From IMG/VR virus record IMGVR_UViG_3300025900_000203: DNA of 64,000 nucleotides; one strand, written 5' to 3'. The stretch is from an uncultured virus (IMG/VR IMGVR_UViG_3300025900_000203). Its lineage: Duplodnaviria; Heunggongvirae; Uroviricota; Caudoviricetes. How positions within the stretch are numbered: position 1 is the stretch's first letter; every line of letters starts with the position of its first letter. Below the pieces are notes generated by a model. The model worked only from the letters and a program-made list of their open reading frames with translations, did no database searches and was not told the origin of the DNA. Made by a program: the position numbers and the translations under genes. Positions 9,586 through 63,597 of this stretch are shown here, piece by piece.

Positions 9586-9591
9586 AGCGTC

Positions 9592-11200: not shown

Positions 11201-11297
11201 TCGCAGGCTGATCTAACCGAGCAAAAAGTTGCCCGGTGTATTGAAGTCACGCATCGTACGTGACAGGTAAGAATCTCGTTTTTTGAGGAACGGACCC

Positions 11298-11510: not shown

Positions 11511-11600
11511 CTCGATCGTTTCAGCGTAGCTGCTGTCTCGATCTTTTGGCTGTGGATCTGCCTGTCGCCAGACAGGACGGCAGGTTCGTTTGGTCTGTCT

Positions 11601-13060: not shown

Positions 13061-13227
13061 TCCTCCATCCGACAGAACCAACGGAGAAGATTGCGCGCGC
13101 TGCGTGGACCTCGGCGGCAGAGGCGGCCATGATCGCGTTTCACATCCGCGCACTCATGGCACGCGCTGAGTATGCGCGCGAGCGCGAGCTGTTCCGTCCC
13201 TGGATCGATCTTGGAGGCGAGGCGTAG

Positions 13228-15222: not shown

Positions 15223-15388
15223 CAGCCAAGCACACAACGCTGTCGCTAAGGAGCGGCGGCATGACAGCCAAGCACACAACGCTGTCGCTAGGAGCGGCGG
15301 CATGACAGCCAAGCACACAACGCTGTCGCTAGGAGCGGCGGCATGACAGCCAAGCACACAACGCTGTCGCTAGGAGCGGCGGCATGAC
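15186..15388 (+). repeat. Five tandem copies of a 41-bp unit spanning the polA stop
   Basis: CAAGCACACAACGCTGTCGCTAGGAGCGGCGGCATGACAGC starting at 15186, 15227 (+1 A), 15269, 15310, 15351. Confidence 0.95.
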
Positions 15389-17247: not shown

Positions 17248-17431
17248 CCGAGTGTGTCCATTGCTCGCTGCCGATCATCGGCGGCGGACATGAATGCCCC
17301 GCGTGCCGCGAGAGCGTCGCTTCGCAGTCTCGTGATGCTGCGTTCGGACAACGTATGTTGATCCTACTTGTCGGGGTTCAGCTTGTCGGGATGGTGGTAG
17401 GACTCGTCTTGCTTACGTGGAGAGGTTGTTC

Positions 17432-18391
17432 GTGACCACGCTCGCCGAAGTAACAGCTCTCGTCTCTGCCCACGTCAATCAGGACCACGTGCGCTTCCGT
17501 GCGCTCACGCTTTCGATTGCTGCGAACGTAGCGGCACGCTCTGAGCACGGCGCGTCCCAGCTTCGGAAGCTCGTCGAGCGCGTGCAGCCTAGGGCGCTCA
17601 TTCCGCTCGTGGGGGCAGACGGCGTGCTCTCCATGCCGCCGGACACCGCTTCTCTTGACGAGATGGTGGTCTCCAGCGAAGTCAGGCATCGGCTCGATCG
17701 CGCGGTACTCGAGTACAAGCAACGCGACGTGCTCAGCGTTCATGGCTTGTATCCAGCGCGGAAGCTGCTCTTCGTGGGACCTCCAGGGACCGGAAAAACG
17801 ATGGCCGCTCGCTCGCTCGCGAAAGCGCTTGAGTTGCCGCTCATTCGCGTCGAGTTGCATGCCGTGATCGCCTCTCATTTGGGTGAGACCGCTGCCAAGC
17901 TCGCGAAGGTATTCGAGCACGTTCGCATGATGCCCGGCGTGTACCTCTTCGACGAGTTCGACGCGCTTGGTGCCGATCGAAGTGCCAGCGATGGCTCCTC
18001 GGCCGCTGCAGAGATGCGTCGAGCAGTTAACTCGCTCCTTCAGTTCATCGAGGATGATCGTTCGGATAGCTTGATCGTGGCGGCGACCAACCTCGGGCAC
18101 ACGCTCGATACCGCGCTCTTCCGACGCTTTGACGAAGTGATCACGTTCGCGATCCCGTCCCGTAGCGAGTTGGTGTTGCTTCTCCAGCAGATGCTCACGG
18201 ACATCGATCCAGATTCGTTGGATCTTGATGCGATCTACCTGGTGGCGCTGAAAGCAAAGCTCGGGCACGCAGACATCTGCGCAGGACTGTCGCGTGTGTT
18301 GAAAGATCACGTACTGGATGATGTGACGATCGACACCCCACGAATCATTTCCGCGCTGCAGCTCCGCGCTCGTCTTGTAGGTCCATCATGA
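17432..18391 (+). CDS. AAA+ ATPase (IetA-like)
   Basis: GPPGTGKT, LFDEFDA, NSLLQ, VAATN, LDTALFRRFD. Confidence 0.85.
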   Translation: MTTLAEVTALVSAHVNQDHVRFRALTLSIAANVAARSEHGASQLRKLVERVQPRALIPLVGADGVLSMPPDTASLDEMVVSSEVRHRLDRAVLEYKQRDVLSVHGLYPARKLLFVGPPGTGKTMAARSLAKALELPLIRVELHAVIASHLGETAAKLAKVFEHVRMMPGVYLFDEFDALGADRSASDGSSAAAEMRRAVNSLLQFIEDDRSDSLIVAATNLGHTLDTALFRRFDEVITFAIPSRSELVLLLQQMLTDIDPDSLDLDAIYLVALKAKLGHADICAGLSRVLKDHVLDDVTIDTPRIISALQLRARLVGPS

Positions 18392-21129
18392 GCACGCTCG
18401 ACGTGGTGGCAGAGATTCTACGGGAGGTCGCGCCGCGCGCGATCAAGTCCCGTGAGATCGCACGTCTCGCAGGAGATAGGCTCCCTACGCAATCTCGGAC
18501 GCCTGAGACGGTGGTCTCTCGCGACCTCGCAATCGATGTGAAGCGCCATGGTGCGACGTCTCGCTTCCTCCGTGCAGATCGCGGCGCCTTCCTCCTCAAG
18601 GAAGCGTTGCCGCACGCTTTTTATAACGACGTCGAGCCGTATGTCGCGCAGTGGACGCGTAACCTGATTGCTGCGGGAGAGATCGCGGCAGGAGTTGTCG
18701 ATGAACGATCCATCCGGAATCTCAGACCCGCCGACGTTGCCAGCTATCGACAGTGTCATTTCTTCAGTGGAGTTGGAGTCTGGTCTCGAGCCCTGCGCGA
18801 CGCCGGATGGCCAGACGATGCCAACGTGTGGAGTGGGAGTTGTCCATGTTTCCCAGCAGGCACTCTTGTTCTGACACAACGTGGGAACATTCCTATCGAG
18901 GACGTTCAGGTAGGTGATGTCGTACTTACCCATCGCGCGCGATGGCGTCGCGTGCAGGCGACAGGCTCAGAGATTAGCGATTGTGTGCAATTGAAAGGGC
19001 AGGGCCATTGGGGAATGGTCTGCACGCCAGGGCATCCATTTCTTTCTGGAGATGAGGAGTGGACAGCTGCCGATCAGATGCAAGGAAAGCGCTGGTCTAC
19101 AGTTGCTCAAGTCCCAAGCTTTATGGAAATTCCGCCTTTGGAGACTAATCGCGGAACCTTCTATGACACCTATTCCAAAGGTTTTAGAGCCAAAGGTGAG
19201 AAGGCCGGAAAACTGGTTTATCTCGGCCTTTATCGAACGAAAGCTGAAGCGCAGGCTGCACGCGACGCCGCTGTTCGCGACGGCAGGGTCGACGTTCGTG
19301 GAGCTGATGCAGTTGATACAGCTTCCATCGCTTTCGCACGTTTCCTTGGTTATTGGGTTGGTGACGGCTGGACATCGCGGGGATCTGTTTTTATTTGCGG
19401 AGCCAAGGAAGATCGCGACTTTCTTGAGGCACTCATGGAAAGTGCAAGACTATCAAGCAGTCTCAGCATTGAACGTACGAGTTCAAGAGCGAGGTGCGGG
19501 TCGAAAGCACTCGTGGCATGGCTCAATCTGCATTTCGGCCAAGGGGCGGCACACAAACGCATTCCGGCTTGGCTGCATGGTGCAAGCGCTGAATATCGCC
19601 AAGCCTTCTTGAGTGGCTATTTAATGGCGGATGGCAGTCGAGAGCTAAACAGCCGTTCCAAATCGCCAATCTTAACCTTCGGAACAGTGTCCCGAGCGCT
19701 TGCCGTAGGAACACGGATCTTGCTTAACCAGGCAGGTATATCCGCGTCCATTTGTCTTTTTACTAAGCGCGGTAAGGGGATTATTGAGGGCCGCGTTGTT
19801 AATCAGCAGCCCTTTTTCAAGGTTACAGCCTATGACAAAGCTAGATCCTTTAGTTTCTGTGAATTCCACGGTCGAGGACTCGTTAGAACCGTCACTCCAG
19901 CTGGAAAATCGTGTGTCTACAATCTCGCGGTCGAAGAAGATGAGAGCTACTGCGCCGATGGAATCGTCGTCCACAACTGTACTCCGTTCTCGGCGGCAGG
20001 GCGAAAGCGCGGATTCTCTGACGAGCAGCACCTCTGGCCCGAGTGGTTCCGACTCATCAAAGCCTGTCGACCTTCTTGGATTTTTGGCGAGCAAGTATCA
20101 AGCAAGGACGGGCTCGCTTGGATCGACGCTGTTCGAATTGACTTGGAAGGTGCGGACTACACCCTCCGGGTGCTCGATCTCCCAGCTGCGAGCGTCGGGG
20201 CGCCGCACCGGCGTCAGCGCCTCTACTTCGTGGCCTACGCCCGTGAGAGAAGACTCGAAATCCTCCGCACGTCATGGCTACATGATCGCCGGCAATCCGG
20301 GGACGACGCTGCTCGACGCTGCTCGACTGACGTCGCCAGCTCCGTATCCGACGCCGAACGCATCGTGCGGGACACGGGGAGGGAGTGCGGACCATATGGA
20401 TGGGAGGCGGTCGAATCTGATCGATACGGTGAAGTTGATGGAGCCAGGACCTGTGGGACCCTCGGGATGGGCGACGCCGGCTTCGCAGGAAGCGGGTGGG
20501 ACAGCCGAGCGGTTCCTGGAGCGCAAGCGGCTCGCGAAGGAGAACGGATCCCAACTGGGAGTTTCACTAACGAGTCTCTCTCTGCAAGCGCAGATGACGG
20601 AAGCGTTGCCGTCAACGGATCCTTCGAGGATGAATTCCCCGAGGATGGAGGCGAAGCCAGGGAACTGGTACGAGGAGCAGCTGACGCTGCCGGCGCTTTC
20701 TGGAAGCCCGGAGAACGGATCCGATTCCGAGATGATCCCAGCTGGGGAGGAGCTGTTGGAGGATTCTGGGTCGCTGGAGTTGAGTGGATCTACTGCCGGC
20801 CGGAGCCGGGACACGAAGACGGGCGCTGGCGGCCAGCTCAATCCGAAGTTGAGCCGTTGGCTTATGGGCCTTCCGTCGACATGGGACGCACACGCGCCAA
20901 AAGATTGAGAGGCTTTGGCAACGCCATCGTGTTGCCGCTGGCGACCGAGTTTGTGGCGTCGGTACTAGACGTGCTCGCAGATGCAATCGATCTTGAAGAA
21001 GTCAAGAGCACTCCGGAATCCACGGTGGCCGAGATCACTTCGGATCCGGAAGCCGTGAACGTAGATCCTGTCGCCATTCCGATCGTGCGAGAGTCAGCCG
21101 ATCTCGATGCTGCGGAGCACGTCGCGTGA
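18388..21129 (+). CDS. C5-cytosine DNA methyltransferase (alpha chain) with N-terminal HARE-HTH and an intein
   Basis: N-terminal HARE-HTH-like (TPETVVSRDL...SRFLR..RG.F.L); FFSGVG, GSCP|C, FGEQV, GAPHRRQRLYFV, GFGNAIV. Confidence 0.85.
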   Translation: MSTLDVVAEILREVAPRAIKSREIARLAGDRLPTQSRTPETVVSRDLAIDVKRHGATSRFLRADRGAFLLKEALPHAFYNDVEPYVAQWTRNLIAAGEIAAGVVDERSIRNLRPADVASYRQCHFFSGVGVWSRALRDAGWPDDANVWSGSCPCFPAGTLVLTQRGNIPIEDVQVGDVVLTHRARWRRVQATGSEISDCVQLKGQGHWGMVCTPGHPFLSGDEEWTAADQMQGKRWSTVAQVPSFMEIPPLETNRGTFYDTYSKGFRAKGEKAGKLVYLGLYRTKAEAQAARDAAVRDGRVDVRGADAVDTASIAFARFLGYWVGDGWTSRGSVFICGAKEDRDFLEALMESARLSSSLSIERTSSRARCGSKALVAWLNLHFGQGAAHKRIPAWLHGASAEYRQAFLSGYLMADGSRELNSRSKSPILTFGTVSRALAVGTRILLNQAGISASICLFTKRGKGIIEGRVVNQQPFFKVTAYDKARSFSFCEFHGRGLVRTVTPAGKSCVYNLAVEEDESYCADGIVVHNCTPFSAAGRKRGFSDEQHLWPEWFRLIKACRPSWIFGEQVSSKDGLAWIDAVRIDLEGADYTLRVLDLPAASVGAPHRRQRLYFVAYARERRLEILRTSWLHDRRQSGDDAARRCSTDVASSVSDAERIVRDTGRECGPYGWEAVESDRYGEVDGARTCGTLGMGDAGFAGSGWDSRAVPGAQAAREGERIPTGSFTNESLSASADDGSVAVNGSFEDEFPEDGGEARELVRGAADAAGAFWKPGERIRFRDDPSWGGAVGGFWVAGVEWIYCRPEPGHEDGRWRPAQSEVEPLAYGPSVDMGRTRAKRLRGFGNAIVLPLATEFVASVLDVLADAIDLEEVKSTPESTVAEITSDPEAVNVDPVAIPIVRESADLDAAEHVA
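18847..19977 (+). mobile_element. Intein (377 aa) with LAGLIDADG homing endonuclease and AP2-like insert
   Basis: Starts CFPAGTLV, block B TPGHPF, GYWVGDG and GYLMADG, ends VYNLAV...IVVHN followed by C+1; visibly more AT-rich. Confidence 0.92.
19958..20908 (+). CDS. Nested alternative-frame ORF, putative C5-MTase beta subunit (start uncertain)
   Basis: GSTLFELTWK, repeated W/Y-P/A-TP motifs, GQLNPKLSRWLMGLPSTW (motif IX-like) in a frame shifted from the MTase. Confidence 0.65.
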   Translation: MESSSTTVLRSRRQGESADSLTSSTSGPSGSDSSKPVDLLGFLASKYQARTGSLGSTLFELTWKVRTTPSGCSISQLRASGRRTGVSASTSWPTPVREDSKSSARHGYMIAGNPGTTLLDAARLTSPAPYPTPNASCGTRGGSADHMDGRRSNLIDTVKLMEPGPVGPSGWATPASQEAGGTAERFLERKRLAKENGSQLGVSLTSLSLQAQMTEALPSTDPSRMNSPRMEAKPGNWYEEQLTLPALSGSPENGSDSEMIPAGEELLEDSGSLELSGSTAGRSRDTKTGAGGQLNPKLSRWLMGLPSTWDAHAPKD

Positions 21130-33198: not shown

Positions 33199-34593
33199 TC
33201 AGGGCGTCTTATGCGAAAAGGGGTTAACGATCTGATCGCGACCTTGCCGAACTTTCACCCTCGGTACGCTCGGTACGCTCGGTACGCTCGGTACGCTCGG
33301 TACGCTCGGTACGCTCGGTACGCTCGGCTTGGGTGTAGGCTTCGCGTTGGGGGCCGGAACGCTTTTGTGTGGAGGTAGCGGTGGCATCGCGTCGACCTGC
33401 ACGGATGCGGCGACTGGAACGGTCGACACGGTTGGTACGACGAGGGGTACCGTAGGGGCACTCTTCTCGCTGCGGGTGCTCAGCCGCGTGCCTGCGAGGA
33501 AGCCGAGACTCGCGCCGATCGCTACGATCCCAAGCTTCCCCCAGGGGACCCGCTGCCGTCGCCGCATCGCACGAGGTCCGATCAACTCCGTGATCGCGCG
33601 TTGTGAAGGCGTGGATACCCGAAGGTTCGTGAGGACGGAACGGATCTGCGCCAGCGTGGGGCGATGATCGGGATCTTTGGCGAGCATCGCGAAGAGCACG
33701 AGATCAAGTTGTGGATGGATCTCTGGCCAGATCGATCGTGGCAAGGGCGGGTCGGCATGGAGATGCGCGGCGTAGAGCTCCGGCGCGGTGCGCGCATGGG
33801 TGAACGGCCCGACCCCGAGAAGCAGTTCATACGCGATGCAACCGAGCGCATAGATGTCGGTGCGATGATCGACACCCACACCTCGAGCTTGCTCCGGGGA
33901 CATGTACATCGGCGTGCCGAGCGCGACACCACTCTGCGTGCGCTGCGCGCGGTAGTCGTCGTTGACGCGATCCGCAGCAAGTTTGGCGAGGCCGAAGTCG
34001 ACGAGCTTCACGATCGGTGGCTCATCCGGCAAGTGTACAAGGAACGTGTTCTCCGGTTTGAGATCCCGATGGATGACGCCTTGGCCGTGCGCGGCTTCCA
34101 ACCCACGCGCCATTTGATCGATCACACGCAGTGCCTCCAGCAGAGGAAGCCGCCCTCGTGTCATGCGCTCGAACAAACTTTCCCCTTTCAGGTACTCCAT
34201 GACGAAAAAGGCGCGGCCGTCGCTCAGCTCGCCGATGTGATCGACCGCCACGATTGCAGGGTGCTGAACCTGGGCGAGGGTTCGTGCCTCCATCGCGAAG
34301 CGCTCGATCGCATCGGTGTCTTCGGAGAGTCGCTTGCGAATCACCTTGATCGCGACACGCTTGCCGAGTTTCACGTGGTGGGCCGCGTACACTTCGCCCA
34401 TCGAGCCAGCGCCGAGGCGGGCATCGATCTCGTAAGTGTCCCCCACCATCGATCCGGGTGGTAGATCGCGGAAGTTGTCGTGGCGCACGATAGAGGTCGG
34501 AGGATCCGACGCTACGGTACCGCGGGACAGTGGAGCTTGGTCGTTGAATCTAGGCATCGGCATCAGCATCGAGAGGAGATCTCCCACCCTCAC
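33199..34593 (-). CDS. Eukaryotic-like (Hanks) Ser/Thr protein kinase with transmembrane helix
   Basis: LGAGSMGEVY, VAIKV, HRDLKPEN, DFGLAK, GTPMYMSPEQ, DIYALG; TM segment and Pro-rich tail. Confidence 0.95.
   Translation of the reverse strand: MRVGDLLSMLMPMPRFNDQAPLSRGTVASDPPTSIVRHDNFRDLPPGSMVGDTYEIDARLGAGSMGEVYAAHHVKLGKRVAIKVIRKRLSEDTDAIERFAMEARTLAQVQHPAIVAVDHIGELSDGRAFFVMEYLKGESLFERMTRGRLPLLEALRVIDQMARGLEAAHGQGVIHRDLKPENTFLVHLPDEPPIVKLVDFGLAKLAADRVNDDYRAQRTQSGVALGTPMYMSPEQARGVGVDHRTDIYALGCIAYELLLGVGPFTHARTAPELYAAHLHADPPLPRSIWPEIHPQLDLVLFAMLAKDPDHRPTLAQIRSVLTNLRVSTPSQRAITELIGPRAMRRRQRVPWGKLGIVAIGASLGFLAGTRLSTRSEKSAPTVPLVVPTVSTVPVAASVQVDAMPPLPPHKSVPAPNAKPTPKPSVPSVPSVPSVPSVPSVPSVPRVKVRQGRDQIVNPFSHKTP
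33260..33327. repeat. 9-bp tandem repeat (CTCGGTACG)x7 encoding (PSV)n in the kinase tail
   Basis: Seen directly. Confidence 0.95.
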
Positions 34594-51980: not shown

Positions 51981-52248
51981 CTGCGACAGATTGACAACCC
52001 TTGCGACGAATTGCAATCTCTTCAGGCCTCCGCGTCATCCTTGGTGACGATCCGAAACGAGACATCGTGCTTGCCTCGCAGCGCGGAGGTAAGAAGCGCG
52101 TCGATCTCCGCCCGCGTCAACTGCGAGACGTCGTACTCGATGATCAGCACGCGCCGTGGCTTCTTGATCGGTGTCGACACTATCGGTGTCGACGTTACCA
52201 AGAATTGTGCCGACTGAACGAAGCCGCAACCTGTTGTCTTCCATGCCT

Positions 52249-52319
52249 GGGTACAAGATCACCCAGTATCTTGATCACCGCACGATCGTTGCTTTGGAGA
52301 GCCGGGTATTCCAATACCT
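52249..52319. promoter_or_regulatory. Pair of near-perfect GGGTA-N6-TACCC palindromes at the main strand divergence
   Basis: GGGTAcaagatCACCC (52249-52264) and GGGTAttccaaTACCT (52304-52319). Confidence 0.65.
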
Positions 52320-52374
52320 AGGTTCACATGTCAGATGCTTACGCCAGGCACGCGAACTGCTTTAGGCTCATGTT

Positions 52375-53541
52375 GTGAACGAACTGGTCAGCATTCGCAG
52401 TAAGTCGTCATGTGCCCGCGTAGATCGCGGCGTCGAGCTGGATGGCAACGTCACCGCGCTGATCGCCGCGAATGCACCTTGCGCGATCGGTGTTTCGGGC
52501 GGAAAAGACTCTTGCGCGGCAGCGATTGCGGTCGTTGATCATCTCCGCGCTGTTCAGCATCGCGGCCCGATCGTACTCGTGCATGCCGACCTCGGCGATG
52601 CGGATCCAGCTCTCAACGTCGAGTGGGAGGACTCGCTACCGACCTGCGAGCGGCTCGCGGCTTTTCTGGGCGTCGAGCTGATCGTCACGCGTCGTCCTGC
52701 GGGCGGCATGATGAAGCGTTGGCTCAAGCGGTGGGAGAACAACGTCGGGCGGTACGCAGATCTATCCTGCGTCAAGATCATCTTGCCGTGGTCAACGCCT
52801 TCGATGCGGTTCTGTACTTCGGAGCTCAAGAGCGCGCCGATCGCATCTGCGCTGGTAAAGCGCTTCCCTGGGAAGCAGATCATTAGCGCCTGCGGCATTC
52901 GTCGCGAAGAAGGCAACGGTAAGGAAAATTCCCCACGCACCCATGCTCCGACGTCGAAGCCGAATCCGCGGCTCAAGCGTGCCAAGACGAGTGGCGTCGA
53001 CTGGAATCCGATCGCAGCGTGGTCGACCGCGGACGTGTTCGCTTTCTGCGCGAGCCGTGGCTTCCAGATGCACGAAGGGTACGCACTGGGCATGAGCCGT
53101 ATTTCGTGCCGATTCTGCATCATGCAGGATCTTTCGGATCAGCGAACGTCCGCTTCAGTCGCTGCGAACGCGGCAGTGTTCCGCACGATTGTCAGTCTGG
53201 AGATTCGATCAACCTTCGCGTTCCAAGGCTCTCGCTGGCTCGGCGACGTTGCTCCGCAGCTCCTTGATGAGAAGACGCGGACAGCTCTCGTCGAAGCCAA
53301 GGCTCGAGCGGCTCGTCGCGTGTCGATCGAGCGGCGGATCCCAAAGCATTTGCTCTACACCAAGGGTTGGCCAACGGTGATGCCGACCTTGGAAGAGGCC
53401 GCGTTACTCTGTCAAGCACGCCGTGAGGTGGCGGAGTTGCTCGGACTCTCAATTCGCTACACGGAACCTGAAGCGTTGCTCGCGCGCTACGCGCAGCTCA
53501 TGGATCAGAAAGCACAGAAGGCTAACAAAACTGGAGTGTGA
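52375..53541 (+). CDS. Phosphoadenosine phosphosulfate reductase-family (PP-loop) protein
   Basis: GVSGGKDS, VHADLG, RFCTSELK, GIRREE, WNPI..W, RISCRFCI. Confidence 0.85.
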   Translation: MNELVSIRSKSSCARVDRGVELDGNVTALIAANAPCAIGVSGGKDSCAAAIAVVDHLRAVQHRGPIVLVHADLGDADPALNVEWEDSLPTCERLAAFLGVELIVTRRPAGGMMKRWLKRWENNVGRYADLSCVKIILPWSTPSMRFCTSELKSAPIASALVKRFPGKQIISACGIRREEGNGKENSPRTHAPTSKPNPRLKRAKTSGVDWNPIAAWSTADVFAFCASRGFQMHEGYALGMSRISCRFCIMQDLSDQRTSASVAANAAVFRTIVSLEIRSTFAFQGSRWLGDVAPQLLDEKTRTALVEAKARAARRVSIERRIPKHLLYTKGWPTVMPTLEEAALLCQARREVAELLGLSIRYTEPEALLARYAQLMDQKAQKANKTGV

Positions 53542-53906
53542 GTGTGATGGAGAATGTGATGGTGGGTCGGCGTGTTTCTTCGGTGTGGCACCAACTCGTG
53601 GACGGCGAGATCGTGCGATGGGAACCCTTTGGGAGTTCGGTGAGCGATGTGCTCGTGCGCTCGCTGGATGGGCGGCTCTGTTGGTACGCGAGCCATGGAC
53701 TCGTTCCCGTGGATGATCGAGGTCCGCTGCCGACGCGGAGCCAGGCGGTCGAGCAGCGACGGCTGGAGATGCTCGCGCAGCTGACGGCGATCCGCGCACA
53801 ACACCTCGCCACGCTCTATCGAGAGCGCTGGGTGGGTGCGGAATTCGGGAAGGTACTTGTCGGGCAGATGCTGGAGCAAGCTCTTGCGGAGCTAGCTCTG
53901 GACTAG
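53538..53906 (+). CDS. Hypothetical protein
   Basis: GTGA-coupled ORF. Confidence 0.5.
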   Translation: MSVMENVMVGRRVSSVWHQLVDGEIVRWEPFGSSVSDVLVRSLDGRLCWYASHGLVPVDDRGPLPTRSQAVEQRRLEMLAQLTAIRAQHLATLYRERWVGAEFGKVLVGQMLEQALAELALD

Positions 53907-53945
53907 GTTTCAGCAGATACTCGGAGAAATAAAAGGAGGCCAGTT

Positions 53946-54419
53946 ATGGCAACGCCGAAGCAGTTGGATCAAGACATCGACGAAGTTCTGGCAGCGCGCA
54001 AGCGTCGCGACGCGTCGACACGCTCACAGGGGACGAGCAAGATCCCGAGTCAGTCCGAGTACGAGCAACGCGAGCGAAAGGAAGCGCAGGCGAAGCTCCT
54101 TGAAGTCCGGCGAGCCCCGCTAGCGGATCGTAAGGAAGCCGAAGCGGAGTTCTTTGCGGCGATGCGGGATCATCCCGAGATCGTCGCCGAGCGTGTCGGT
54201 TGGCTTATTGCTGGGAACTACGGATACGGATCCAAGCTCCTCGCGGATCGCGTGCTGCAGTCCCCGCGCATGAACCGGCCGGCTGCGCTCACGCAGATGG
54301 TGGCGGCTTTCGAGTGGCAGTGCCCGGAGGATCACGCCCGTGCCGCGTGGAAGAAACTCTCGACGAACGAACAAGCGACGCTGGAGCGTGCGGTGCGCCG
54401 CGAGATCGCAGAAGCATGA
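53946..54419 (+). CDS. Hypothetical protein with TPKQLDQDIDEVL leader
   Basis: Strong RBS AAAGGAGG. Confidence 0.65.
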   Translation: MATPKQLDQDIDEVLAARKRRDASTRSQGTSKIPSQSEYEQRERKEAQAKLLEVRRAPLADRKEAEAEFFAAMRDHPEIVAERVGWLIAGNYGYGSKLLADRVLQSPRMNRPAALTQMVAAFEWQCPEDHARAAWKKLSTNEQATLERAVRREIAEA

Positions 54420-54874
54420 AGCTTCGTGCTCGCTGGGTCGGTCTACCTCCGCAACCGGGCGACTATCTCATGTCTGATACGCGTCCACGCTTTGCGTATC
54501 GTGTCTTGCAGGTGGTCGCTTCATCGAAGGTTGCGCTGGAGAGTGGCGGCCTCGAGAGCCGTAAACTCCAGATCGAAGTCGATCGTATCGTTGCGGCTGG
54601 AGTTCCTCCGCAAGCCCGTGTGCACCCATGGAAATGGGATCGACGAGGCACCTGATGAAGGGCTGTGTGTATCCAGTTCCGCCTCGAGCGGTGCGGCACA
54701 TCCGTCGCCCGCTATCGGATGCTACCGAGAGTTGTGGAGCGCCTGCGACGCATCGGACCGGCTATGGACTTCGCGTATGTGCGGTACATGCGATGTCCTC
54801 TGATCGCTTTTTTTCGGAGGAGGATGGTCGTTCCCAGCTCCTAAGGATCTAGAGGAGCCAAGGTCACCCTTGGG

Positions 54875-55306
54875 TCACTGCCCTTGGAAGACCCACGACG
54901 GCGCCACGTATCCGTCACGGCCGCCGCTAACGAGGAACTCGCGCTCGGCCTGCCGCACGATCTGCGCGAAGCGCTCACGAAACCCACGCAGCTCGCGAGC
55001 AGTCCCAGATCCCGGAAGTGTCTGCCAGGGGATATCGTGCTTCGTGCCACGGAAGTGAAGCCACGCTCGAAGGAACGGATCCCATGTCGATTGGAGGAAG
55101 CGGTAGCGATCGCTGGTCTCCGCGCCTGGCCGCGGACGCCACGTTCCAGGCTCGTACACGAGATCCCGCAGCGCCTGCCCGAAGGTCATGACGTTCGCAT
55201 GGAGGCGCTCCATCGAATCGTCCACCTCGTCACCGACCACGATGCGAGAATACGGTGGGTACCAGATCAAGATCGGTGCGTAGGGTGTTGGATACCAGAA
55301 CCACAT
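54875..55306 (-). CDS. Hypothetical protein
   Basis: Trp/Pro-rich N-terminus; divergent from the Cas12-like gene. Confidence 0.45.
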   Translation of the reverse strand: MWFWYPTPYAPILIWYPPYSRIVVGDEVDDSMERLHANVMTFGQALRDLVYEPGTWRPRPGAETSDRYRFLQSTWDPFLRAWLHFRGTKHDIPWQTLPGSGTARELRGFRERFAQIVRQAEREFLVSGGRDGYVAPSWVFQGQ

Positions 55307-55499
55307 GGCCGGATCGTACGACGTCAGACGTGGCCGAGGATACTTTTCGCTGCGGGATCAGAACAGGCAGTCCCTAGTGGACTCAGAACGGAAGGGCCCC
55401 CGACTTTGGCAAGCGGCAATGATCTCGCTAGGGTTGTTGACTGATTTCGACAGGATCTGCTTGCTGAAATGTCTATCGTTCTGTTAGCTCTCCACTTCG

Positions 55500-57440
55500 A
55501 TGCCGCGAGCTCCGCGTCGCAAGACCTCGGACGTTCCTACGCGGATCTATTCGTACCGTTGCTTGGCACCGATCACAGAAGCGGCGGCTGTCGAGCAACA
55601 GTTCAAGCTCGCGCACCAGTACCGTAACAAGTTGGTCGAGATCGAAGGAGCGCTTCGCGAGGCTCTTCGCAATGTGCAGATCGAGGACGACATTGTGGGG
55701 CCGGTGCTCGCCCGCTATGAAGGTGCCGAGGCGAACGTCGACGCCGCGTACGAAGATCTTCGCGCACGGAAGTCCGGAAACGCCCGAGCAGACCTCACGC
55801 AGGCGCAAGATATCCTAGAGGCGGTCAAAGAGTTGCGGGATAGCTTCGATGCTGAGCTACGCGAGGCGAAATCTTCGCGGCTTGCCTACCTGCAGGTAGG
55901 GTATGCCGCGGCACGTGAAGTCGCCCAGCGGCAACGTCGAGCAGCACGGCACGACTTCATTCAGCGCGGACTACGCACGGCCACGTACGACCGCGTCGAG
56001 AACGCTGTGAAGCAGGCGGTGGCTTCCACGCAACGACCGTTGCACTTCGAACGCTATGACGGTACGGGATCGATCGGGACGCAGTTGATCGGGGCGCGGG
56101 ATGCCTCGGCGGTGCGTGGGATGCCTGTCACCGCGTTGCTGTCGGGGAAAGACTCACGACTCCGTTTGGGCTCTCCTGGAGAAGCGGACGCGCATCCTCG
56201 AGTCGAGGTGGTTGGAACCTCGTGGGCCGATTATGAAACACTGCCTCGGAATGTGCGCCGCCACGCAGCGCGCACGTTTGTGGATCTTCGTGTTGGGAGC
56301 AACCCGGATCAATCTCCCGTCTTCGCACGCTTTCCTGTGACGTTTCATCGGCCGCTTCCAGCGGATGCTGTGATCAAGTGGGCCTACGTCGTCCGACGGC
56401 GCATCGGACATCAGTACGAGTGGCGATTCCAAGTCACGATCGAGAGCACAACGTTTCGATCACCTGCAACGCCTGTCGGCATCGGCACGTGTGCGATCGA
56501 TTTGGGCTGGCGCCGCATCTTCAACGGCCAAGGGGACGTGGTTGGTCTTCGCGTGGGATACGTCGTCGATGAATTCGGCGTCGAGAGAGAGATCCTCGCG
56601 CCGGCGAATCTCGTGCCTGGGATGGCCAAGGTTGAGGATCTTTCTTCGATTCGTGACAAGGCGTTCGATGGCGCGCGCAAGTGCTTTGTGGAATGGCTTC
56701 GCACACAGGTGGAGCTGCCAGCCTGGATGCAGGCGCGCATCACGGGGCTCGCGCAGTGGCGATCCCCCCCGAGGCTTCAAGCCCTCATCGACCTATGGAC
56801 TGGGATCGATTGGGATGCGTGGCGGGCGGCCCGAGCGATTGGTCGGAAGTGCAACCCTTCCGATTTTGCCGTGGCCACCCATCGGATCGAAGGTGATGGT
56901 CCAGTGCTCGCAGTGTTACAAGCATGGGCACGGCAAGATCGTCATCTTCAAAGCTGTCAGGAGCACCAGCGTGCACACTTGATCGCCGCACGCACCGAGA
57001 CGTGGCGCGTGGTAGCTGCCGAACTCTCCAAACGGTACGCGACGATCTTGCTCGAGAGTGGTACGCGGAAGGATGATTTACTGGATCTCACTGAGATCGA
57101 GGGCTGGGAGCAACCTGCCCCGGAAGATGGCAATCCATCGGAGGGTCGAGATCAACGAAAGATATCCCGACTCGCAGCTCCTGGTGAGTTGCGAGCCGAG
57201 ATCTTAAAGGCTGCCGGCAAGCACGGCACACGCGTGGAGGTGAAAGAGGCCGCGTATTCGACGAATGAATGTGCGTGGTGCGGATCGCGAGAGACGTTCG
57301 ATGCACGTGCCAGCATCCAGCATCGATGTGCAGCGTGCGCTCGCACGTGGGATCAAGATGCGAACGCCTGTCGTAATCTGTTGCACCGTCATGGGGTGCC
57401 AAGTGGCCCCGTACCCATGGGTACTTGCACGATCAGTTGA
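55500..57440 (+). CDS. Cas12m (type V-U1/V-M)-like / TnpB-derived RuvC protein, 646 aa
   Basis: QQF.LAH.YRN.LVEIE, FERYDGTGSIG.QL, HRPLP.DA.I, RuvC-I AIDLGWR, QWRSP.R, RuvC-II ILLES, AAPGELR, CAWC/CAAC zinc finger, RuvC-III WDQDANA. Confidence 0.85.
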   Translation: MPRAPRRKTSDVPTRIYSYRCLAPITEAAAVEQQFKLAHQYRNKLVEIEGALREALRNVQIEDDIVGPVLARYEGAEANVDAAYEDLRARKSGNARADLTQAQDILEAVKELRDSFDAELREAKSSRLAYLQVGYAAAREVAQRQRRAARHDFIQRGLRTATYDRVENAVKQAVASTQRPLHFERYDGTGSIGTQLIGARDASAVRGMPVTALLSGKDSRLRLGSPGEADAHPRVEVVGTSWADYETLPRNVRRHAARTFVDLRVGSNPDQSPVFARFPVTFHRPLPADAVIKWAYVVRRRIGHQYEWRFQVTIESTTFRSPATPVGIGTCAIDLGWRRIFNGQGDVVGLRVGYVVDEFGVEREILAPANLVPGMAKVEDLSSIRDKAFDGARKCFVEWLRTQVELPAWMQARITGLAQWRSPPRLQALIDLWTGIDWDAWRAARAIGRKCNPSDFAVATHRIEGDGPVLAVLQAWARQDRHLQSCQEHQRAHLIAARTETWRVVAAELSKRYATILLESGTRKDDLLDLTEIEGWEQPAPEDGNPSEGRDQRKISRLAAPGELRAEILKAAGKHGTRVEVKEAAYSTNECAWCGSRETFDARASIQHRCAACARTWDQDANACRNLLHRHGVPSGPVPMGTCTIS

Positions 57441-57510
57441 CGATCGTGCTCTCATCTACCGGCTACTGGCTTCAGACGATCTCGAGAGACCTGGAAGGTC
57501 CTTCGCTACA
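57411..57510 (+). ncRNA. Putative structured RNA overlapping the 3' end of the Cas12-like gene (omegaRNA/tracr-like)
   Basis: GTACCCATGGGTAC palindrome, GCACGATC-N7-GATCGTGC hairpin over the stop codon, GACC-TGGAA-GGTC hairpin ending in GCTAC. Confidence 0.35.
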
Positions 57511-57872
57511 ACACCCTCGCTATAGAGTGCGGCGTGTCGACGTTTCCACGTGGGCAGCACGCGATCGAGGAGTGTGTAGAACGCCGCGTCGTGTCCCGAG
57601 CCCTGAGGTTTCTGCTTCAACGCAAGGTGCGCGAGCTCATGCACGATGACGTACTCGAGCGCAGCGTCCGACATGTTCGAGAGCTTCAAACTGATCCAGA
57701 GACGCCGAGCCTGCGGGTTCGTCGATCCCCACGCACGCATCTTCTTGATGTGAAATTCTTGGAGCTGCACGCCGAGGCGCGGCAGCCAGAGGTCGAGGAG
57801 TCGCTGAACCCGTCGCTCAAGCCGCGCTCTTGCGAGATGATCTTCGATCTCTTGTCTGATGTTTCGTGACAC
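57456..57872 (-). CDS. YgjP/DUF45-like M48 metallopeptidase domain protein
   Basis: IKKMRAWGS, LEYVIVHELAHL, H...FY.LL...LPTW. Confidence 0.8.
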   Translation of the reverse strand: MSRNIRQEIEDHLARARLERRVQRLLDLWLPRLGVQLQEFHIKKMRAWGSTNPQARRLWISLKLSNMSDAALEYVIVHELAHLALKQKPQGSGHDAAFYTLLDRVLPTWKRRHAALYSEGVVAKDLPGLSRSSEASSR

Positions 57873-57880
57873 GTTCGAAT

Positions 57881-57951
57881 GTAGCTTGCGGCATCAACTG
57901 CCGCAGGACACGCTCGATGTTCGATGTAGCTTTCGGCATCCACTGCCGCAG
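57881..57951 (-). CRISPR. Putative minimal CRISPR array: two 26-bp hairpin repeats with a 19-bp spacer
   Basis: Minus strand CTGCGGCAGTGGATGCCGAAAGCTAC / ATCGAACATCGAGCGTGTC / CTGCGGCAGTTGATGCCGCAAGCTAC (24/26 identical, CGGCA..TGCCG stem); about 440 bp from the Cas12-like gene; orientation inferred. Confidence 0.45.
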
Positions 57952-58083
57952 CCTTCGCGCTGTGGCCGCAGTCGCGATCGTCGACCGATCGCGCAAGCAA
58001 GCCAAGCGTCGTAGCGATCGAAGCGTCCGGCGAATTTCTCGGGATTTTGGGAAAAAACTTGCAGACGTCGTAAAGTCGATCCT

Positions 58084-59382
58084 GTGGCGGATATCAAGAA
58101 GATCGGTAGCCTTGTCCCTGAGGAAGGCGAGGGAATCATCACCGAGCGAGGCCCTCGTGGACCACGTGGACATGACGGCCACGAGGGACCGACAGGTCCT
58201 ACAGGTCCTGGCGGTGGTGGAGCTGGTTCGACGGGACCGACCGGATCAACCGGATCGACTGGACCGAGTGGAGTTGGACCGACGGGTGCGACGGGTGCTC
58301 CTTCGGCAGTGACAGGTCCCACGGGCTCGACAGGTTCCACAGGGCCGACAGGTTTCACAGGGCCGACAGGTGCTCCTTCGACGGTGACGGGACCTACTGG
58401 GAGCACCGGCGCGACGGGTAACACAGGACCGACGTCGACGGTTACGCAGTACACCTTCATCCTCAATCAGGACGCTGCGCCGTCTCCTTCACCGCCGCTG
58501 TATCAGGATTGGGCCACGTGCTTCGCCGCGATGTCGCTCGTTCCAGGCCCCAAGCTCCTCGTGCTGGCTGCGACGGGTCACACGACGACCGTGCCCCTCG
58601 GGACGTGGGACTTCACAGAAGTCACGGTGCTGGGTGATGAAGATCAAGACATCCAACAGGTGCTCGATTTCCCACTCGCCTCGGATGGGGTGGTGGCCAC
58701 GAACCTCGGCACGATTGGTCCTGGTGTGACCATCACCGTGCACACCAACACGCCGCCCGTGCAGGACTTCTTAGGTCCGATTCGTCTCGCGCGAAACAGC
58801 ACTGTCGCTCCGATCGTTCCGCTGTGGGCCTATACCGCAGCTTCTGTCGGGAAGACTGTACAGATTGACGTCTACGGCAATCTCGGTAACGGAAGCCAGA
58901 ACGCCTTCGACACGTCTGGATCGGGCGGCATGATCGTTCACCTGCTCGCCGCGGATGGGGCTGTCATTCTCGACAGTGCCCTCAGCGGTGACGGCGGCGC
59001 TGGATCATTGCTGATTCAAACAGGCGAAAACGGCAATGCGGGAGCGATTCAAGACAGCTGGGGGACGGTGGACTTTGTCAACTTCTTCCCAGGCGCGAAT
59101 GTCGTCGGGCTTGGAGATGGCAATACAATCACCACGGGACATCTGTCCGTCGGCGACTCTACAGGCGGCAATCTCAACTGTCCGTTAATCCCTGTCAATC
59201 AAACGGCTGGCGGTATTGCCATCGTGAAGAATGTCGGTACCGCGAATACGATCACCATCACGGCCGCGGCCTTTGACTTTATCGACGCCGCGCCGACCAA
59301 CACGTTCGTTGTGGCGGCAGGCAAGGCAGTGTGGCTCATGAATGACAACAGCCACCTCTGGTACGTCGTCGCGCAGGCCTAG
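58084..59382 (+). CDS. Collagen-like (GxT repeat) fibre protein with beta-rich C-terminal domain
   Basis: [10 protein letters not shown] then GPTGSTG repeats. Confidence 0.8.
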
Positions 59383-59729
59383 ATGAGTCTTGTGCGTACG
59401 GTGACGGATGGATGTTCGTCGCTCTCTTCTGCCTGGACTTCCACCTCGCTTGCGAGATAGCCGATCTCGTCCTTGGTGAATCCAGTGACATCAAACGTGA
59501 GGACGCGCAACGTAGCTCCCCCGCGTTTGGTTTCCCCGCGTTTGACGATCTTCGAGTCCAGCGGGCTGGCATCCGGGTGCCCAGGCTTCCCTTTGTAATA
59601 GCGCTTTCCACCCTGTCCATCGGAGGCTTCCCCTTGCGCCACGGCTTCTCCTTCGAGCGCTCCGATTTCAGTTTTCGACAGCGACGTGACATCGAACGAG
59701 ACCTCGAGTTTCGTGCAGCGCTTGCTCAT
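59379..59729 (-). CDS. Hypothetical protein with internal duplication
   Basis: FDVT..SK.EIG.L..E...Q.E.SD occurs twice. Confidence 0.6.
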
Positions 59730-60179
59730 TGACTGCAGGATACCAGGTGGGATGCCAGCCCGCGATCATGCACGGCCACGCTCCTTTGACCTCGCGCGTG
59801 AAGCTGCTACTGTTCAAATCAGCGAGTTGTGACGGCATGAGCACCGTGGCGCGCGGCATCCGGGTGGACGGAAGGATGGTGATCGGTTGCACGCTCCACC
59901 AGGCTCTCCGCATCGTCGATACGCCAGAGGAGGGGATTGTCGCGTGGGACGAGAGCGGCTTCTCGCTGCCCACTGGCCGTCGCATCGAGATCACTAGCGG
60001 CGATTGCTTCACCACCATCTGGTGGGCGCGCTGTCGCACACCGTGGTGCAAAGGGAAGATCCCAGACGATCTGCCGCTGGAGGATCGTGCCCGTGGCGCG
60101 CGCTGGATCCATCCACCGCCTTGGCTGCTCGTCCCTGTGTCTCGGACGTGGGACCTGGTGCCGTGAGCGTCCCGGCAGC

Positions 60180-60704
60180 TCAACGTACTATCGACACCAG
60201 CACGAGTTGATAGGTGACGTCGATGATCTCTTGCGTATTCGCAATCCCCTTTCCGAAGATTGGAACAAGCATGGAGGCGTCCGAGCTGCCGGTTTGGAGT
60301 GGGATTGGAGGCACGTACAGGAATACGGTCTCACCGACGGGACCCGGAGGTAGTTGTGGTAGATGAATCCCCGGGATCGGCAGTTTGTCGACATCGGGGA
60401 CTGGGATCGGCGCGGTGAGCGTCAAGATCACTTTGAGGTAGCCAGGTGCTACCACAGCATCTAGTCCGCCGAACGTGATGCCACCCGTCAGGTTGAGCAC
60501 ATCGGCCGTGTACGTGATGGAGAGGTCATTCGCGACTGTCGCGGTGATGCGGATTTGCGCGGAGATCGCAACAGCGAATCCGAGTGGATCTTGCTTGGTA
60601 CCACTCCCCTGGAGGCTCGCATCATGGAACACACGCGAGAGCCCCTTATGTTGTTGCTTCGGAGCGCACGCGCTCGTCGCGCTTGCCAGTTTGGAGTCAG
60701 CCAT
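60180..60704 (-). CDS. Possible virion/tail-fibre-associated protein
   Basis: VFHDASLQGSGT..DPLG motif resembling fibre proteins. Confidence 0.5.
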   Translation of the reverse strand: MADSKLASATSACAPKQQHKGLSRVFHDASLQGSGTKQDPLGFAVAISAQIRITATVANDLSITYTADVLNLTGGITFGGLDAVVAPGYLKVILTLTAPIPVPDVDKLPIPGIHLPQLPPGPVGETVFLYVPPIPLQTGSSDASMLVPIFGKGIANTQEIIDVTYQLVLVSIVR

Positions 60705-60848
60705 GCGGCATTCTAGGTGAATCCCCGTAGACGTGCGAATTACTTACCCTCGTGCCCGCGTCGCGGATCTGTCTCAGCCATGCCCTACGTTATGACAGCC
60801 TTGCGCGCGGGCGTATTCGTACTGCCACATGCTGTGAAAGCCCAACCC

Positions 60849-60864
60849 GGGTACTTGAATACCC
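60849..60864. promoter_or_regulatory. GGGTA-N6-TACCC palindrome
   Basis: GGGTActtgaaTACCC in a divergent intergenic region. Confidence 0.7.
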
Positions 60865-60950
60865 AACAGCGCTAGCAACGTGCTGCAAGAGGTCTTGGCA
60901 GTTCCTGCGGTTCCTGGCAGGATGGCCCTGCGGTTGCTTTAACGAAGCGC

Positions 60951-61289
60951 ATGAAGGATCTCGCGAAGAAGAAACTCGGGCAGTTCTCCAAGCGTTTGGA
61001 AGCGGCCCAGGCCGCTTTTGGTCTTCAGATCGCGAAGCTTGCCGAGCAGGCACGTGCCGAGATCCTGCCGTACTTCAAGGAGCACAACCTCGACTACATG
61101 GCAGGTAATGGCACTTGGATCATCACCAAGCCTTCCGCGGACTCGTCGCCATTCTATCGACCCGAAGACTGCGTGGAGGATGAAGAGTTGCCGGAGAACA
61201 TCCGAGCACTTCTCAACCTCGAAGTTGGCGTGAACGACTACCTCGGCTTTTACATCGAAGACATCCGCCGCGTGAAGTCTGCGGCGTGA
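60951..61289 (+). CDS. Hypothetical protein
   Basis: Clean ORF. Confidence 0.55.
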   Translation: MKDLAKKKLGQFSKRLEAAQAAFGLQIAKLAEQARAEILPYFKEHNLDYMAGNGTWIITKPSADSSPFYRPEDCVEDEELPENIRALLNLEVGVNDYLGFYIEDIRRVKSAA

Positions 61290-62500: not shown

Positions 62501-63376
62501 ATGAGCAACAACCGCGCTGATTCCGCCCCTCGCCAAGAAGTCAAGATGTACGCCCCGGAAGACGTCGTCATCATCGGTCTCGACACCGAGGACGGTCCGT
62601 CGCACCCGTTGTATGACGGCGAAAGCAACGCCGCGCCGCTGATCGAAGCCGACGTGGAGTTCACGAAGGAGCACGGCATCCTTCAGGCCGTTTGCTGCAA
62701 GCGCGACGGTGACAGGCTCTTGGTCGTGTACGGCCGCGGTCGTACGCGTCAGCTCCGCGAGGCCAACAAGCGTCGCAAGGCAGAAGGGCAGGAGCCGTGG
62801 TTCTTGCCCGTGAAGATCATCCGTGGAGACGAGAGCAAGTTGCTCGCGCTCAAGCACGGCGAGAACTCGCATCGTCGTGCGATCAACCCGCTCGCGCGGG
62901 CACGTGAAGCCTACGATCTCGCGCAGCAGATGCCCGAAGCCAAGGCCGCCGTCATCTTGGGACTCGGCATCAACCAGTTCCGCAACGTGGTAAAGTTGCT
63001 CGATCTTGCACCGGCGGTCGCGAAGGCTGTCTCGAAGGGCGAGATCTCCGCGACGGCGGCCGTTGATCTGACCGGCCTGTCCGAGGTCGAGCAGACCGAG
63101 AAGCTTGCCGAGCTGATGAAGGCAAGCGGTGGTGAGAAGCCGACGATCCGCGACGTCAAGGCGGTGGTGCGCGAGGCGAACGGCAAGGCCCCGCTGTTGT
63201 CGCCGGCGCAGCGGATCACGAAGGTGTCGGAGGTGATCACCAAGCTCGACGATTCCGCGACCAAGGACGAGCTCTGGTCGACGATCCGGAAGATCAAGAG
63301 TCTCCTCGAAGATAAGGCGAAGAAGGAGAAGGCGGACAAGGCGAAGAAGGGTACTTCGCGGGCGAGCGCGTCGTGA
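62501..63376 (+). CDS. ParB/Srx-like protein with HTH
   Basis: HGILQAV...LVVYGRGR..., EN..R...NPL..A, HTH-like AAVILGLGINQFRNVVKLLDL...G.IS..AA. Confidence 0.75.
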   Translation: MSNNRADSAPRQEVKMYAPEDVVIIGLDTEDGPSHPLYDGESNAAPLIEADVEFTKEHGILQAVCCKRDGDRLLVVYGRGRTRQLREANKRRKAEGQEPWFLPVKIIRGDESKLLALKHGENSHRRAINPLARAREAYDLAQQMPEAKAAVILGLGINQFRNVVKLLDLAPAVAKAVSKGEISATAAVDLTGLSEVEQTEKLAELMKASGGEKPTIRDVKAVVREANGKAPLLSPAQRITKVSEVITKLDDSATKDELWSTIRKIKSLLEDKAKKEKADKAKKGTSRASAS

Positions 63377-63597
63377 AGATCACATCCGCCACGACCATCG
63401 TCGAGCTGGAGATTCTCAAAGGCGAGCTTGGCGTCGCATCGGTGCGCACGGAGCTACTGGGACTTCGCCGACTCGCCGCGATCCGCCATCCTCAGTACGG
63501 CCACTTCGTGTGCACCGCGGACACCGAGGCAGAAGCGCTCGACGGCGCGTTCGCGAAGCTGATCACGGCGATCAGCGCCGCGCTCGCGGCATCCTGA
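63373..63597 (+). CDS. Hypothetical protein
   Basis: GTGA-coupled ORF. Confidence 0.5.
   Translation: MKITSATTIVELEILKGELGVASVRTELLGLRRLAAIRHPQYGHFVCTADTEAEALDGAFAKLITAISAALAAS

Follow-up and report, generated by a model that had tools for sequence, protein, structure and literature searches.

Introduction

The closest described relatives of the protein that we study here are Cas12m proteins, the effectors of type V-M CRISPR systems (formerly known as Cas12u1 and V-U1). Passages of Omura 2023 (PMC10442227), citing Wu 2022, divide Cas12m into four clades, and clades 3 and 4 have D-E-D, N-E-D, or D-N-D at the three RuvC positions. The same passages report that converting the H-D-D site of Cas12m2 to D-E-D did not restore cleavage, and they speculate that the D-E-D clades might hydrolyze DNA. 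According to sections of Bigelyte 2024 (PMC11013384), 134 variants were collected and eight orthologs, four of them D-E-D, were tested. In those sections, none of the eight (which have D-E-D, H-D-D, or N-D-D sites) cleaved double-stranded DNA (dsDNA), and six of the eight bound DNA in a manner that depended on the protospacer-adjacent motif (PAM). Here we describe a cas12m gene with a D-E-D triad in 64,000 nucleotides (nt) of DNA from an uncultured virus (IMG/VR record IMGVR_UViG_3300025900_000203). We refer to this whole 64-kb stretch as the window. By analogy with the tested orthologs, we judge the chances to be slightly better than even that this protein would bind DNA under RNA guidance and silence its target, using a minimal and fixed CRISPR RNA (crRNA) locus that lies just beyond the gene.

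The window's protein shares many features with D-E-D Cas12m proteins (clades 3 and 4, the orthologs of Bigelyte 2024, and the solved chain 23vw_A): the order of the domains, the motifs AIDLGWR, xLEx, and WDQDxNA, the C4 zinc finger, the fold, a full-length match to the family's profile, and a 36-nt repeat design with a 3' hairpin that ends in GAC. It differs from them in that it is at most about 30% identical, is longer (646 amino acids, in a clade of 625-824, versus about 540-600), is encoded on a phage-like genome, and is accompanied by one canonical repeat instead of an array. MmCas12m2 and GoCas12m (8hhl, 8hio, and 8pm4) are the best structural matches, and their RNA-guided binding and silencing is our working model. 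In contrast to the window's protein, to which they are 21-23% identical, these have H-D-D at the RuvC site, lack the NA residues in RuvC-III, and are encoded on plasmids or chromosomes with arrays.

Two other Cas12m-like genes are carried by phages. MvCas12m from myxophage MV-1 (D305/E463/D555) is presented in portions of a September 2026 preprint (bioRxiv 10.64898/2026.09.14.751636) as the first phage Cas12m. Going by that description only, MvCas12m and the window's protein are both phage-encoded, both D-E-D, and both without cas1, cas2, or cas4, but MvCas12m has 610 amino acids and an adjacent array of eight spacers, while the window's protein has 646 amino acids and its one-repeat locus lies on the strand opposite to the gene. 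Virus Rctr197k (KX853510.1, a 197-kb caudovirus) is the sole GenBank phage record with a homolog: its Cas12m-like gene is 28.5% identical over 95% of the query and is followed by a CRISPR region, whose repeats are recognized by our covariance model (see below). It differs in being a distant relative and in having a 1.5-kb array. In that record (108507-118168), the gene is annotated as "similar to transposase" and lies next to the annotated 1.5-kb CRISPR region.

Regulators of the TldR and CreR types offer a conceptual parallel only. These are nuclease-independent binders, derived from TnpB or Cas12, with one fixed guide. Unlike TldR, the window's protein is a bona fide Cas12m by sequence and has an intact triad, and our search of the window gave no complementary target. 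As for CreR, which would combine degenerate repeats with a short stretch partly complementary to the cas promoter, the window has degenerate repeat units, and the candidate guide stretches have no match of at least 15 of 18 nt and no 11-nt seed elsewhere in the window.

Identification of a type V-M Cas12m

The gene and its key sites are as follows.

55500..57440, + strand: cas12m gene, type V-M effector, 646 amino acids, ATG start (open reading frame listing, with profile, PDB, and fold matches)
56499..56501, + strand: codon of D334, RuvC-I, within AIDLGWR (residue numbering and alignment to RuvC-I of solved Cas12m chains)
57054..57056, + strand: codon of E519, RuvC-II, within ILLES (numbering and alignment to solved Cas12m chains)
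57357..57359, + strand: codon of D620, RuvC-III, within WDQDANACRN (numbering and alignment to solved Cas12m chains)
57270..57338, + strand: C4 zinc finger of the TNB domain (C591, C594, C610, and C613; Pfam PF07282 and cysteine columns of the alignment)

Both its sequence and its predicted structure identify this protein as a genuine Cas12m of type V-M. The PADLOC profile for Cas12u1 matched with E = 7.5e-88 and covered profile positions 3-529 of 533. When we used phmmer to compare the protein to all chains in the PDB, the only significant matches were to four distinct Cas12m sequences (five entries): 23vw_A (E = 2.4e-56), Cas12m2 in 8hio and 8hhl (about 2e-24; the sequence of 8hhl is also that of 8hhm), and 23vu_A (1e-15). 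Chains of TnpB and Cas12f had E values of 0.3 or worse. A model from AlphaFold2, with a 45-sequence family alignment as the input, had a mean predicted local distance difference test score of 87.3 and has long coiled-coil REC helices at residues 28-62, 66-91, 100-126, and 128-155, as in Cas12m. In a Foldseek search with this model, the top four hits were the Cas12m structures 8hhl, 8hio, 8pm4, and 8hhm, with template-modeling (TM) scores of 0.56-0.75 (0.65-0.75 for 8hhl, 8hio, and 8pm4), and Cas12f and TnpB were far lower (query TM of at most 0.39). The AlphaFold2 model, the Foldseek hits, and the match to PF07282 together give the elements expected of a Cas12m fold: the WED domain, the coiled-coil insertion in REC, the split RuvC, and the TNB zinc finger.

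An initial annotation of this DNA, which was made from the sequence alone, had described a 646-residue Cas12m-like effector and had suggested that it might be intermediate between TnpB and Cas12m. The profile search and the structure prediction both bear out the first description. They do not agree with an intermediate: the profile, PDB, AlphaFold2, and Foldseek results all identify the protein as Cas12m, rather than as TnpB or something in between. We rejected TnpB, or a TnpB-Cas12m intermediate, because of the REC helices, the best fold matches to Cas12m, and the low scores from TnpB models. Specifically, the NCBIfam models for TnpB were well below their cut-offs (30.4 versus 100 bits for guided_TnpB, 19 versus 350 for IS607_TnpB, and 16.7 versus 425 for IS200_TnpB), and their alignments were confined to the C-terminal part of the protein. 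On these scores, the protein does not belong to the TnpB proteins of IS200, IS605, or IS607 elements.

The signatures in the initial annotation are all present in the translation (KLAHQYRNKLV, ERYDGTGSIGTQL, HRPLPADAVI, LGWR, QWRSPPR, AAPGELR, and WDQD). We also confirmed the residue numbers with a script: AIDLGWR begins at residue 332, ILLES at 516, and WDQD at 617, which gives D334, E519, and D620, as had been stated along with the C4 zinc finger. The corresponding RuvC-I, -II, and -III motifs are AIDLGWR, LEE, and WDQD in 23vw_A and HLGWR, VDD, and YDQD in Cas12m2 (8hio and 8hhl). E519 and D620 align with RuvC-II and RuvC-III of these solved chains. RuvC-III has the canonical DxNAxxN form (DANAxRN). 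The sole Pfam match of the protein was at the C-terminal end (PF07282, Cas12f1-like_TNB, residues 564-627, E = 1.2e-7).

A single canonical repeat beyond the gene

There is a short repeat locus beyond cas12m, which the initial annotation did not mention. We detected it with covariance models that were built only from the repeats of relatives. The first model was built from ten repeats and the second (R2) from nine. (R2 omits a doubtful 31-nt pair from L011 that lies right after the gene and might encode a C-terminal extension; the result was unchanged.) The locus and the gene beside it are:

57971..58006, - strand: unit A, canonical CRISPR repeat of the Cas12m family, CTTGGCTTGCTTGC-GCGATC-GGTCGAC-GATCGC-GAC (covariance models)
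57951..57970, - strand: putative guide after unit A, TGCGGCCACAGCGCGAAGGC (type V crRNA layout, with the handle 5' and the guide 3', and a guide length of 17-18 nt)
57929..57964, - strand: unit B, degenerate, with a 6-bp stem, the loop AGTGGAT, and flanks GGC/AGC instead of TGC/GAC (direct-repeat pair and minimum free energy hairpin)
57884..57919, - strand: unit C, degenerate, with the stem TGCGGC/GCCGCA and the loop AGTTGAT (direct-repeat pair and minimum free energy hairpin)
57456..57872, - strand: YgjP-like metallopeptidase, 138 amino acids (Pfam PF01863, E = 5.4e-23, HELAH motif)

Unit A is 531 nt past the stop codon of cas12m, on the opposite strand. It was the top match of both covariance models across both strands of the window (128 kb), with 23.6 bits and a rough E value of about 0.004. 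For comparison, when R2 was run on 12 loci that were not used to train it, true array repeats scored 23.6-32 bits. Unit A is also the only instance in the window of the strict pattern TGC-stem-loop-stem-GAC. By eye, it matches the array repeat of L001 (a relative whose Cas12m is 48% identical) at 24 of the 28 3' positions, including one compensatory swap from G-C to C-G. Units B and C do not have the conserved flanks (TGC and GAC). They are identical to each other at 26 of the 28 positions of their core, and the loop of unit C is close to the GGTTGAC of the repeats of L008-L010. The minus-strand RNA of units A-C folds as three hairpins (z = -3.66). We had also considered a + strand mini-array made of a 45-nt repeat pair (57879-57968), and we dropped it because the covariance model instead assigns the canonical repeat to the minus strand.

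From its sequence, the locus has room for no more than one or two stretches (6-20 nt) that resemble guides. The effective length of Cas12m guides, as stated in part of a preprint (10.64898/2026.03.26.714355), is 17-18 nt, so one repeat plus about 18 nt would suffice for a single crRNA. We found no multi-spacer array in the window. The repeat region is identical in a near-identical strain (L007, 98% identity). Contigs from runs X1-X4, which come from 3-4 studies of soil or rhizosphere, also have it unaltered and free of indels and joints; X1 may be the sample from which the window itself derives. We do not take the identity with L007 as evidence of constraint because most of the flanks are equally similar.

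The YgjP-like gene is directly downstream of units A, B, and C and on the same strand. None of the relatives' flanks has a counterpart with a Pfam annotation, and its membership in the Cas12m system is uncertain.

Arrays and single repeats in relatives

The following relatives have arrays near cas12m. (Identities are to the window's protein.)

L008, 66% identity: about 70 repeats of one type upstream and about 30 of another downstream of cas12m
L010, 62% identity: array begins at the contig end
L009, 54% identity: 45-47 repeats
L001, 48% identity: 22 repeats
L012, 43% identity: 21-26 repeats
L002, 27% identity: 10 repeats
L003, 26% identity: 13 repeats

In the relatives at 66, 62, 54, 48, and 43% identity, there is an array after the gene, and the repeats are 36 nt and share a common design. 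No adaptation genes were found in the 6-kb flanks of these relatives. The 6-bp hairpin in the relatives' repeats covaries: 96.7% of the cells are paired, and all six of the pairs show compensatory changes.

R2 also found arrays or mini-arrays in four of the 12 further loci (11 hits in L016, 5 in L031, 9 in Rctr197k, which is our locus L035, and 2 in L023). It had no match in five others (L013, L019, L020, L024, and L027). In the remaining three, there was one isolated repeat with 23.6-29.2 bits and no adjacent array: L011:2758-2793 (+), L006:13202-13237 (-), and L028:11075-11110 (-). These three loci suggest, from their sequences, that having a solo repeat is a recurrent state.

Two features of the arrays stand apart. 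In L008 (positions 1-13917, from a 461-kb contig), a single cas12m is flanked by two arrays with different families of 36-nt repeats, and none of the five downstream flanking ORFs that we scanned matched an adaptation gene. In L009 (11232-11339, and also 8473 and 9920) and in L001, arrays contain the same or nearly the same spacer more than once, which implies that the arrays change by internal recombination or duplication.

The RuvC triad across the family

We used a word-indexed search (E ≤ 1e-5) to find 83 homologs from metagenomes. One is 98% identical to the window's protein, eighteen are 62-68% identical, most of the others are 41-58% identical, and five are distant (24-34%). Overall, 76 of the 83 are 41-98% identical; the full-length ones among these have 625-824 amino acids, and their contigs reach 461 kb. 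We aligned the homologs and the query with MAFFT, which gave 84 rows. At the RuvC-I column, 54 rows have D, 29 have N, and 1 has H. At RuvC-II, 61 rows have E, 19 have G, one has W, one has D, and two have gaps. RuvC-III is nearly uniform (D in 81, P in 1, and gaps in 2), as are the four zinc-finger columns, each with Cys in 80-81 of the 84 rows. All three residues of D-E-D are present in 54 rows.

We inferred a tree with FastTree and rooted it at the midpoint. The tree has 80 rows, as three fragments (P0076, P0077, and P0079) and a near-duplicate (P0001) were removed. The query is on a long branch (0.47) within a well-supported clade of 20 rows, all of which are D-E-D. Across the tree, the triads are D-E-D (53 rows), N-G-D (18), N-E-D (7), N-W-D (1), and H-D-D (1), and N-G-D has at least two origins. 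The direction of these changes is tentative, given midpoint rooting and FastTree only. As judged from the alignment, the triad appears to be conserved where it is present, yet sister clades seem to have replaced it while keeping the rest of the protein.

The N-G-D variant (18-19 rows) and the lone N-W-D are absent from the types that are given in the published passages cited here (HEK, HQK, HDD, DED, NED, DND, and NDD). As a separate observation, four D-E-D homologs of 807-819 amino acids and 41-48% identity (P0063, P0065, P0067, and P0068) have an insert of about 100 amino acids at residues ~235-335, which matches positions 150-255 of the model for the IS66 DDE transposase (E values down to 1e-19).

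The initial annotation had assumed that all characterized Cas12m proteins have a noncanonical RuvC site, so that an intact D-E-D triad would be exceptional. As the passages of Omura 2023 and Bigelyte 2024 make clear, D-E-D clades have been described since 2022 and D-E-D orthologs have been tested. D-E-D is an ordinary state for this family, and in the tests reported in those passages, there is so far no sign of DNA cutting. The best solved relative of the window's protein, 23vw_A, has the same D/E/D motifs and was deposited as "CRISPR-associated DNA-binding protein Cas12m." By analogy, the published tests of D-E-D orthologs argue against nuclease competence in the window's Cas12m.

Selection on the gene

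Neither the window nor the 98% identical strain L007 has a disruption in the cas12m ORF. The two genes differ at 32 codons, of which 18 are synonymous and 14 are nonsynonymous. Because random changes would mostly be nonsynonymous, and yet synonymous changes outnumber them here, this comparison of sequences indicates purifying selection, though it does not seem to be strong. Also, all 18 of the invariant columns in the 45-sequence alignment are kept in the query.

The genome that carries cas12m

We scanned 87 candidate ORFs of at least 70 amino acids from the window against PADLOC (in batches of 9 and 78) and 52-53 ORFs against Pfam and PHROGs. The matches from PHROGs and Pfam include PolA, Dda-like and SNF2 helicases, an RNA ligase, a HAD RNA-repair domain, and collagen-like tail fibers. 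Other genes in the window are Pam3 gp34-like, sigma-like, and RuvA/B-like, along with an intein-containing C5 methyltransferase and a Ser/Thr kinase. PolA matched 523 reference phage records, with 43% identity to the best of them. In blastn, positions 52001-60000 had no match to reference phages. L007 is on a contig of 201,725 bp. Overall, the carrier is very likely a phage, and it is probably a jumbo phage from soil. The cas12m gene is full-length and is probably maintained by selection on this large genome.

None of the 87 ORFs matched Cas1, Cas2, Cas4, or TnpA-type proteins in PADLOC, or in Pfam and PHROGs for the subsets that were compared to them, which agrees with what the initial annotation reported for cas1, cas2, and TnpA near the gene. 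No transposase matched among the 87 ORFs either, with no dedicated search for transposon ends. A scan of the window against Rfam found no family, and a scan for tRNAs was likewise empty.

How might the system work?

If the window's Cas12m is a binder, then it would load a short crRNA with a repeat-derived handle of about 30 nt and a guide of about 17-20 nt. The complex would recognize matching dsDNA that is flanked by a PAM, and tight binding, instead of double-strand cutting, would block transcription or replication. The single canonical repeat and the two degenerate units would provide at most one or two fixed guides, with no acquisition of new ones. The target would probably be a competing mobile element or a gene of the host. 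The binding-only mechanism is argued from the tested D-E-D orthologs, and the mini-locus would be the putative source of the guides.

Several results weigh against this account. Chance alone would give 0.63 instances of the strict repeat pattern in the window. Units B and C were not detected by the covariance models at E ≤ 10 (first model) or E ≤ 5 (second model), and the unique stretches between units are just 6-17 nt (the value varies with the choice of boundaries), versus medians of 34-38 nt for the relatives' spacers. A consensus scan for promoters and terminators in 55200-58200 found no promoter-like site and no terminator. A larger array may lie in the remaining ~137 kb of the ~200-kb genome. 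As for the protein, the query's 20-row clade is only about 23-30% identical to the characterized Cas12m proteins, whose assays are the ones that have been published. D-E-D is invariant in that clade, and RuvC-III is canonical, so the site is possibly still under selection; these sequence patterns suggest a catalytic or metal-binding role of some kind. Also, cas12m is a hotspot of divergence from L007, with 36 differences in 1.9 kb versus 0-3 per 500 nt in most of the flanks. Two variable blocks (60500-60999 and 63000-63499) aside, no part of the aligned 14 kb is more diverged, and 19 of the 36 differences fall within 56500-56999. The query departs from 10 of 149 positions that are conserved in the family, while the median is 4. 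Finally, the window has a ParB-like gene and no recognizable gene for a capsid or portal, and the carrier may be a phage-plasmid or another large element.

We did not find a convincing target. Three candidate guide stretches had no match of at least 15 of 18 nt, and no 11-nt seed, elsewhere in the window, including 55307-55499, just upstream of cas12m. When we scanned viral contigs for exact 18-mers, the stretch after unit A had one match, in a YqaJ-like exonuclease gene of L034, with GTAA as the 5' flank and no extension past 18 nt. We dismissed this match, which is at about the level expected by chance. The other two stretches had no exact 18-mer match in the viral contigs, and there was no exact copy of the repeat of unit A in them. 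Conversely, 167 spacers from seven arrays of relatives had only 15-16-nt matches to the window and to all of our loci.

What else might the locus do? It is possible, but we consider it unlikely, that this Cas12m is a nuclease whose intact D-E-D site cuts or nicks target DNA, as a weapon of the phage. The invariant triad in its clade (and in 54 of the 84 rows), the canonical DANAxRN motif and C4 finger, and the speculation in Omura 2023 about the D-E-D clades are consistent with a nuclease. Also, the published assays, in the passages available, covered dsDNA cleavage and collateral activity in a few orthologs that are about 23-30% identical to the window's protein. But all of the D-E-D orthologs tested in those passages bound DNA without cutting it, Cas12m2 stayed inactive when converted from H-D-D to D-E-D, the closest solved chain (23vw_A) has the same motifs and was deposited as a DNA-binding protein, and related clades have lost both D and E at least twice while retaining the protein. 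A decaying or orphan system seems less likely still. In that case, the array would have collapsed by recombination between repeats, units A-C would be the wreck of it, and the effector would be on its way out or guided from elsewhere, either from a different region of the genome or from co-resident elements. One canonical repeat, compared to 22 to about 100 in relatives, is what such a collapse might leave behind, as are units B and C without their TGC and GAC flanks, and the duplicated spacers in relatives show that arrays recombine; the divergence of cas12m from L007 and its unusual number of departures from conserved positions also fit with decay. However, both strains and the contigs from 3-4 studies all retain an undisrupted ORF, synonymous differences exceed nonsynonymous ones, and the triad, the zinc finger, and every invariant column are retained. 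And the three other array-less loci with a single match to the model suggest a state that is recurrent and possibly functional.

The least probable of the explanations that we considered is that units A-C encode a regulatory or decoy RNA, which might repress cas12m in the manner of CreR, control the YgjP-like gene, or titrate a related Cas12m. Three consecutive hairpins of the Cas12m type with very short unique stretches between them, immediately upstream of ORF 57456-57872 and on the same strand, would make sense for such an RNA. But the guide stretches have no adequate match in the window, and in particular none upstream of cas12m, and the stretches after the solo repeats of L011, L006, and L028 likewise have no self-target within their own loci. 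RNA-guided binding and silencing from a minimal locus is still the explanation that we favor.

Within this family, we also see a slim chance, comparable to that of decay, that the solo-repeat state reflects a D-E-D effector tied to a single fixed guide. Such an effector would be a dedicated RNA-guided regulator, or else a conditional nuclease or nickase, that acts against one conserved target.

Other features of the window

Several other features are near cas12m or elsewhere in the window.

52375-53541, + strand: protein with the PAPS-reductase fold and weak similarity to BrxP, DndC, and SspD, 2 kb upstream of cas12m
33199-34593, - strand: the Ser/Thr kinase, which matches the PD-T4-6 models of PADLOC (E = 3e-81) and is defense-like
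17417-18391, + strand: AAA ATPase that matches IetA (E = 7e-56), a defense-like gene
18388-21129: ORF of 913 amino acids with a C5 cytosine methyltransferase, Hint, and LAGLIDADG, that is, a methylase interrupted by an intein
15186-15388: 4.9 copies of a 41-nt tandem repeat (98% identity), immediately following the PolA gene
58084-58122: first 39 nt of a collagen-like tail-fiber gene

The tandem repeat is not CRISPR-like because it has no variable spacers. In runs X1 and X2, these 39 nt of the tail-fiber gene recur on another long contig, which suggests that a related phage, or a different part of this genome, has a paralogous gene with this start.

Implications

Clades of D-E-D Cas12m, and a D-E-D Cas12m borne by a phage, were already known. 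What is new here is the one-repeat locus and the large, uncharacterized metagenomic clade to which the protein belongs, with the arrays of the relatives and the variation in the triad. If this Cas12m is active, then it could be a further compact DNA binder for use in CRISPR interference or as a scaffold for base editors. If the solo repeats do correspond to effectors with a single fixed guide, then this state would be a TldR-like domestication that arose within a CRISPR family, and the strictly kept triad would mark a catalytic step outside the scope of the published dsDNA assays. More broadly, the clade includes lineages whose arrays hold about 100 spacers, others with a single repeat, and others in which the RuvC residues were lost, which makes it a natural series for asking what the triad is for. 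This series could show how phages use CRISPR effectors that do not cut, and do so without adaptation genes.

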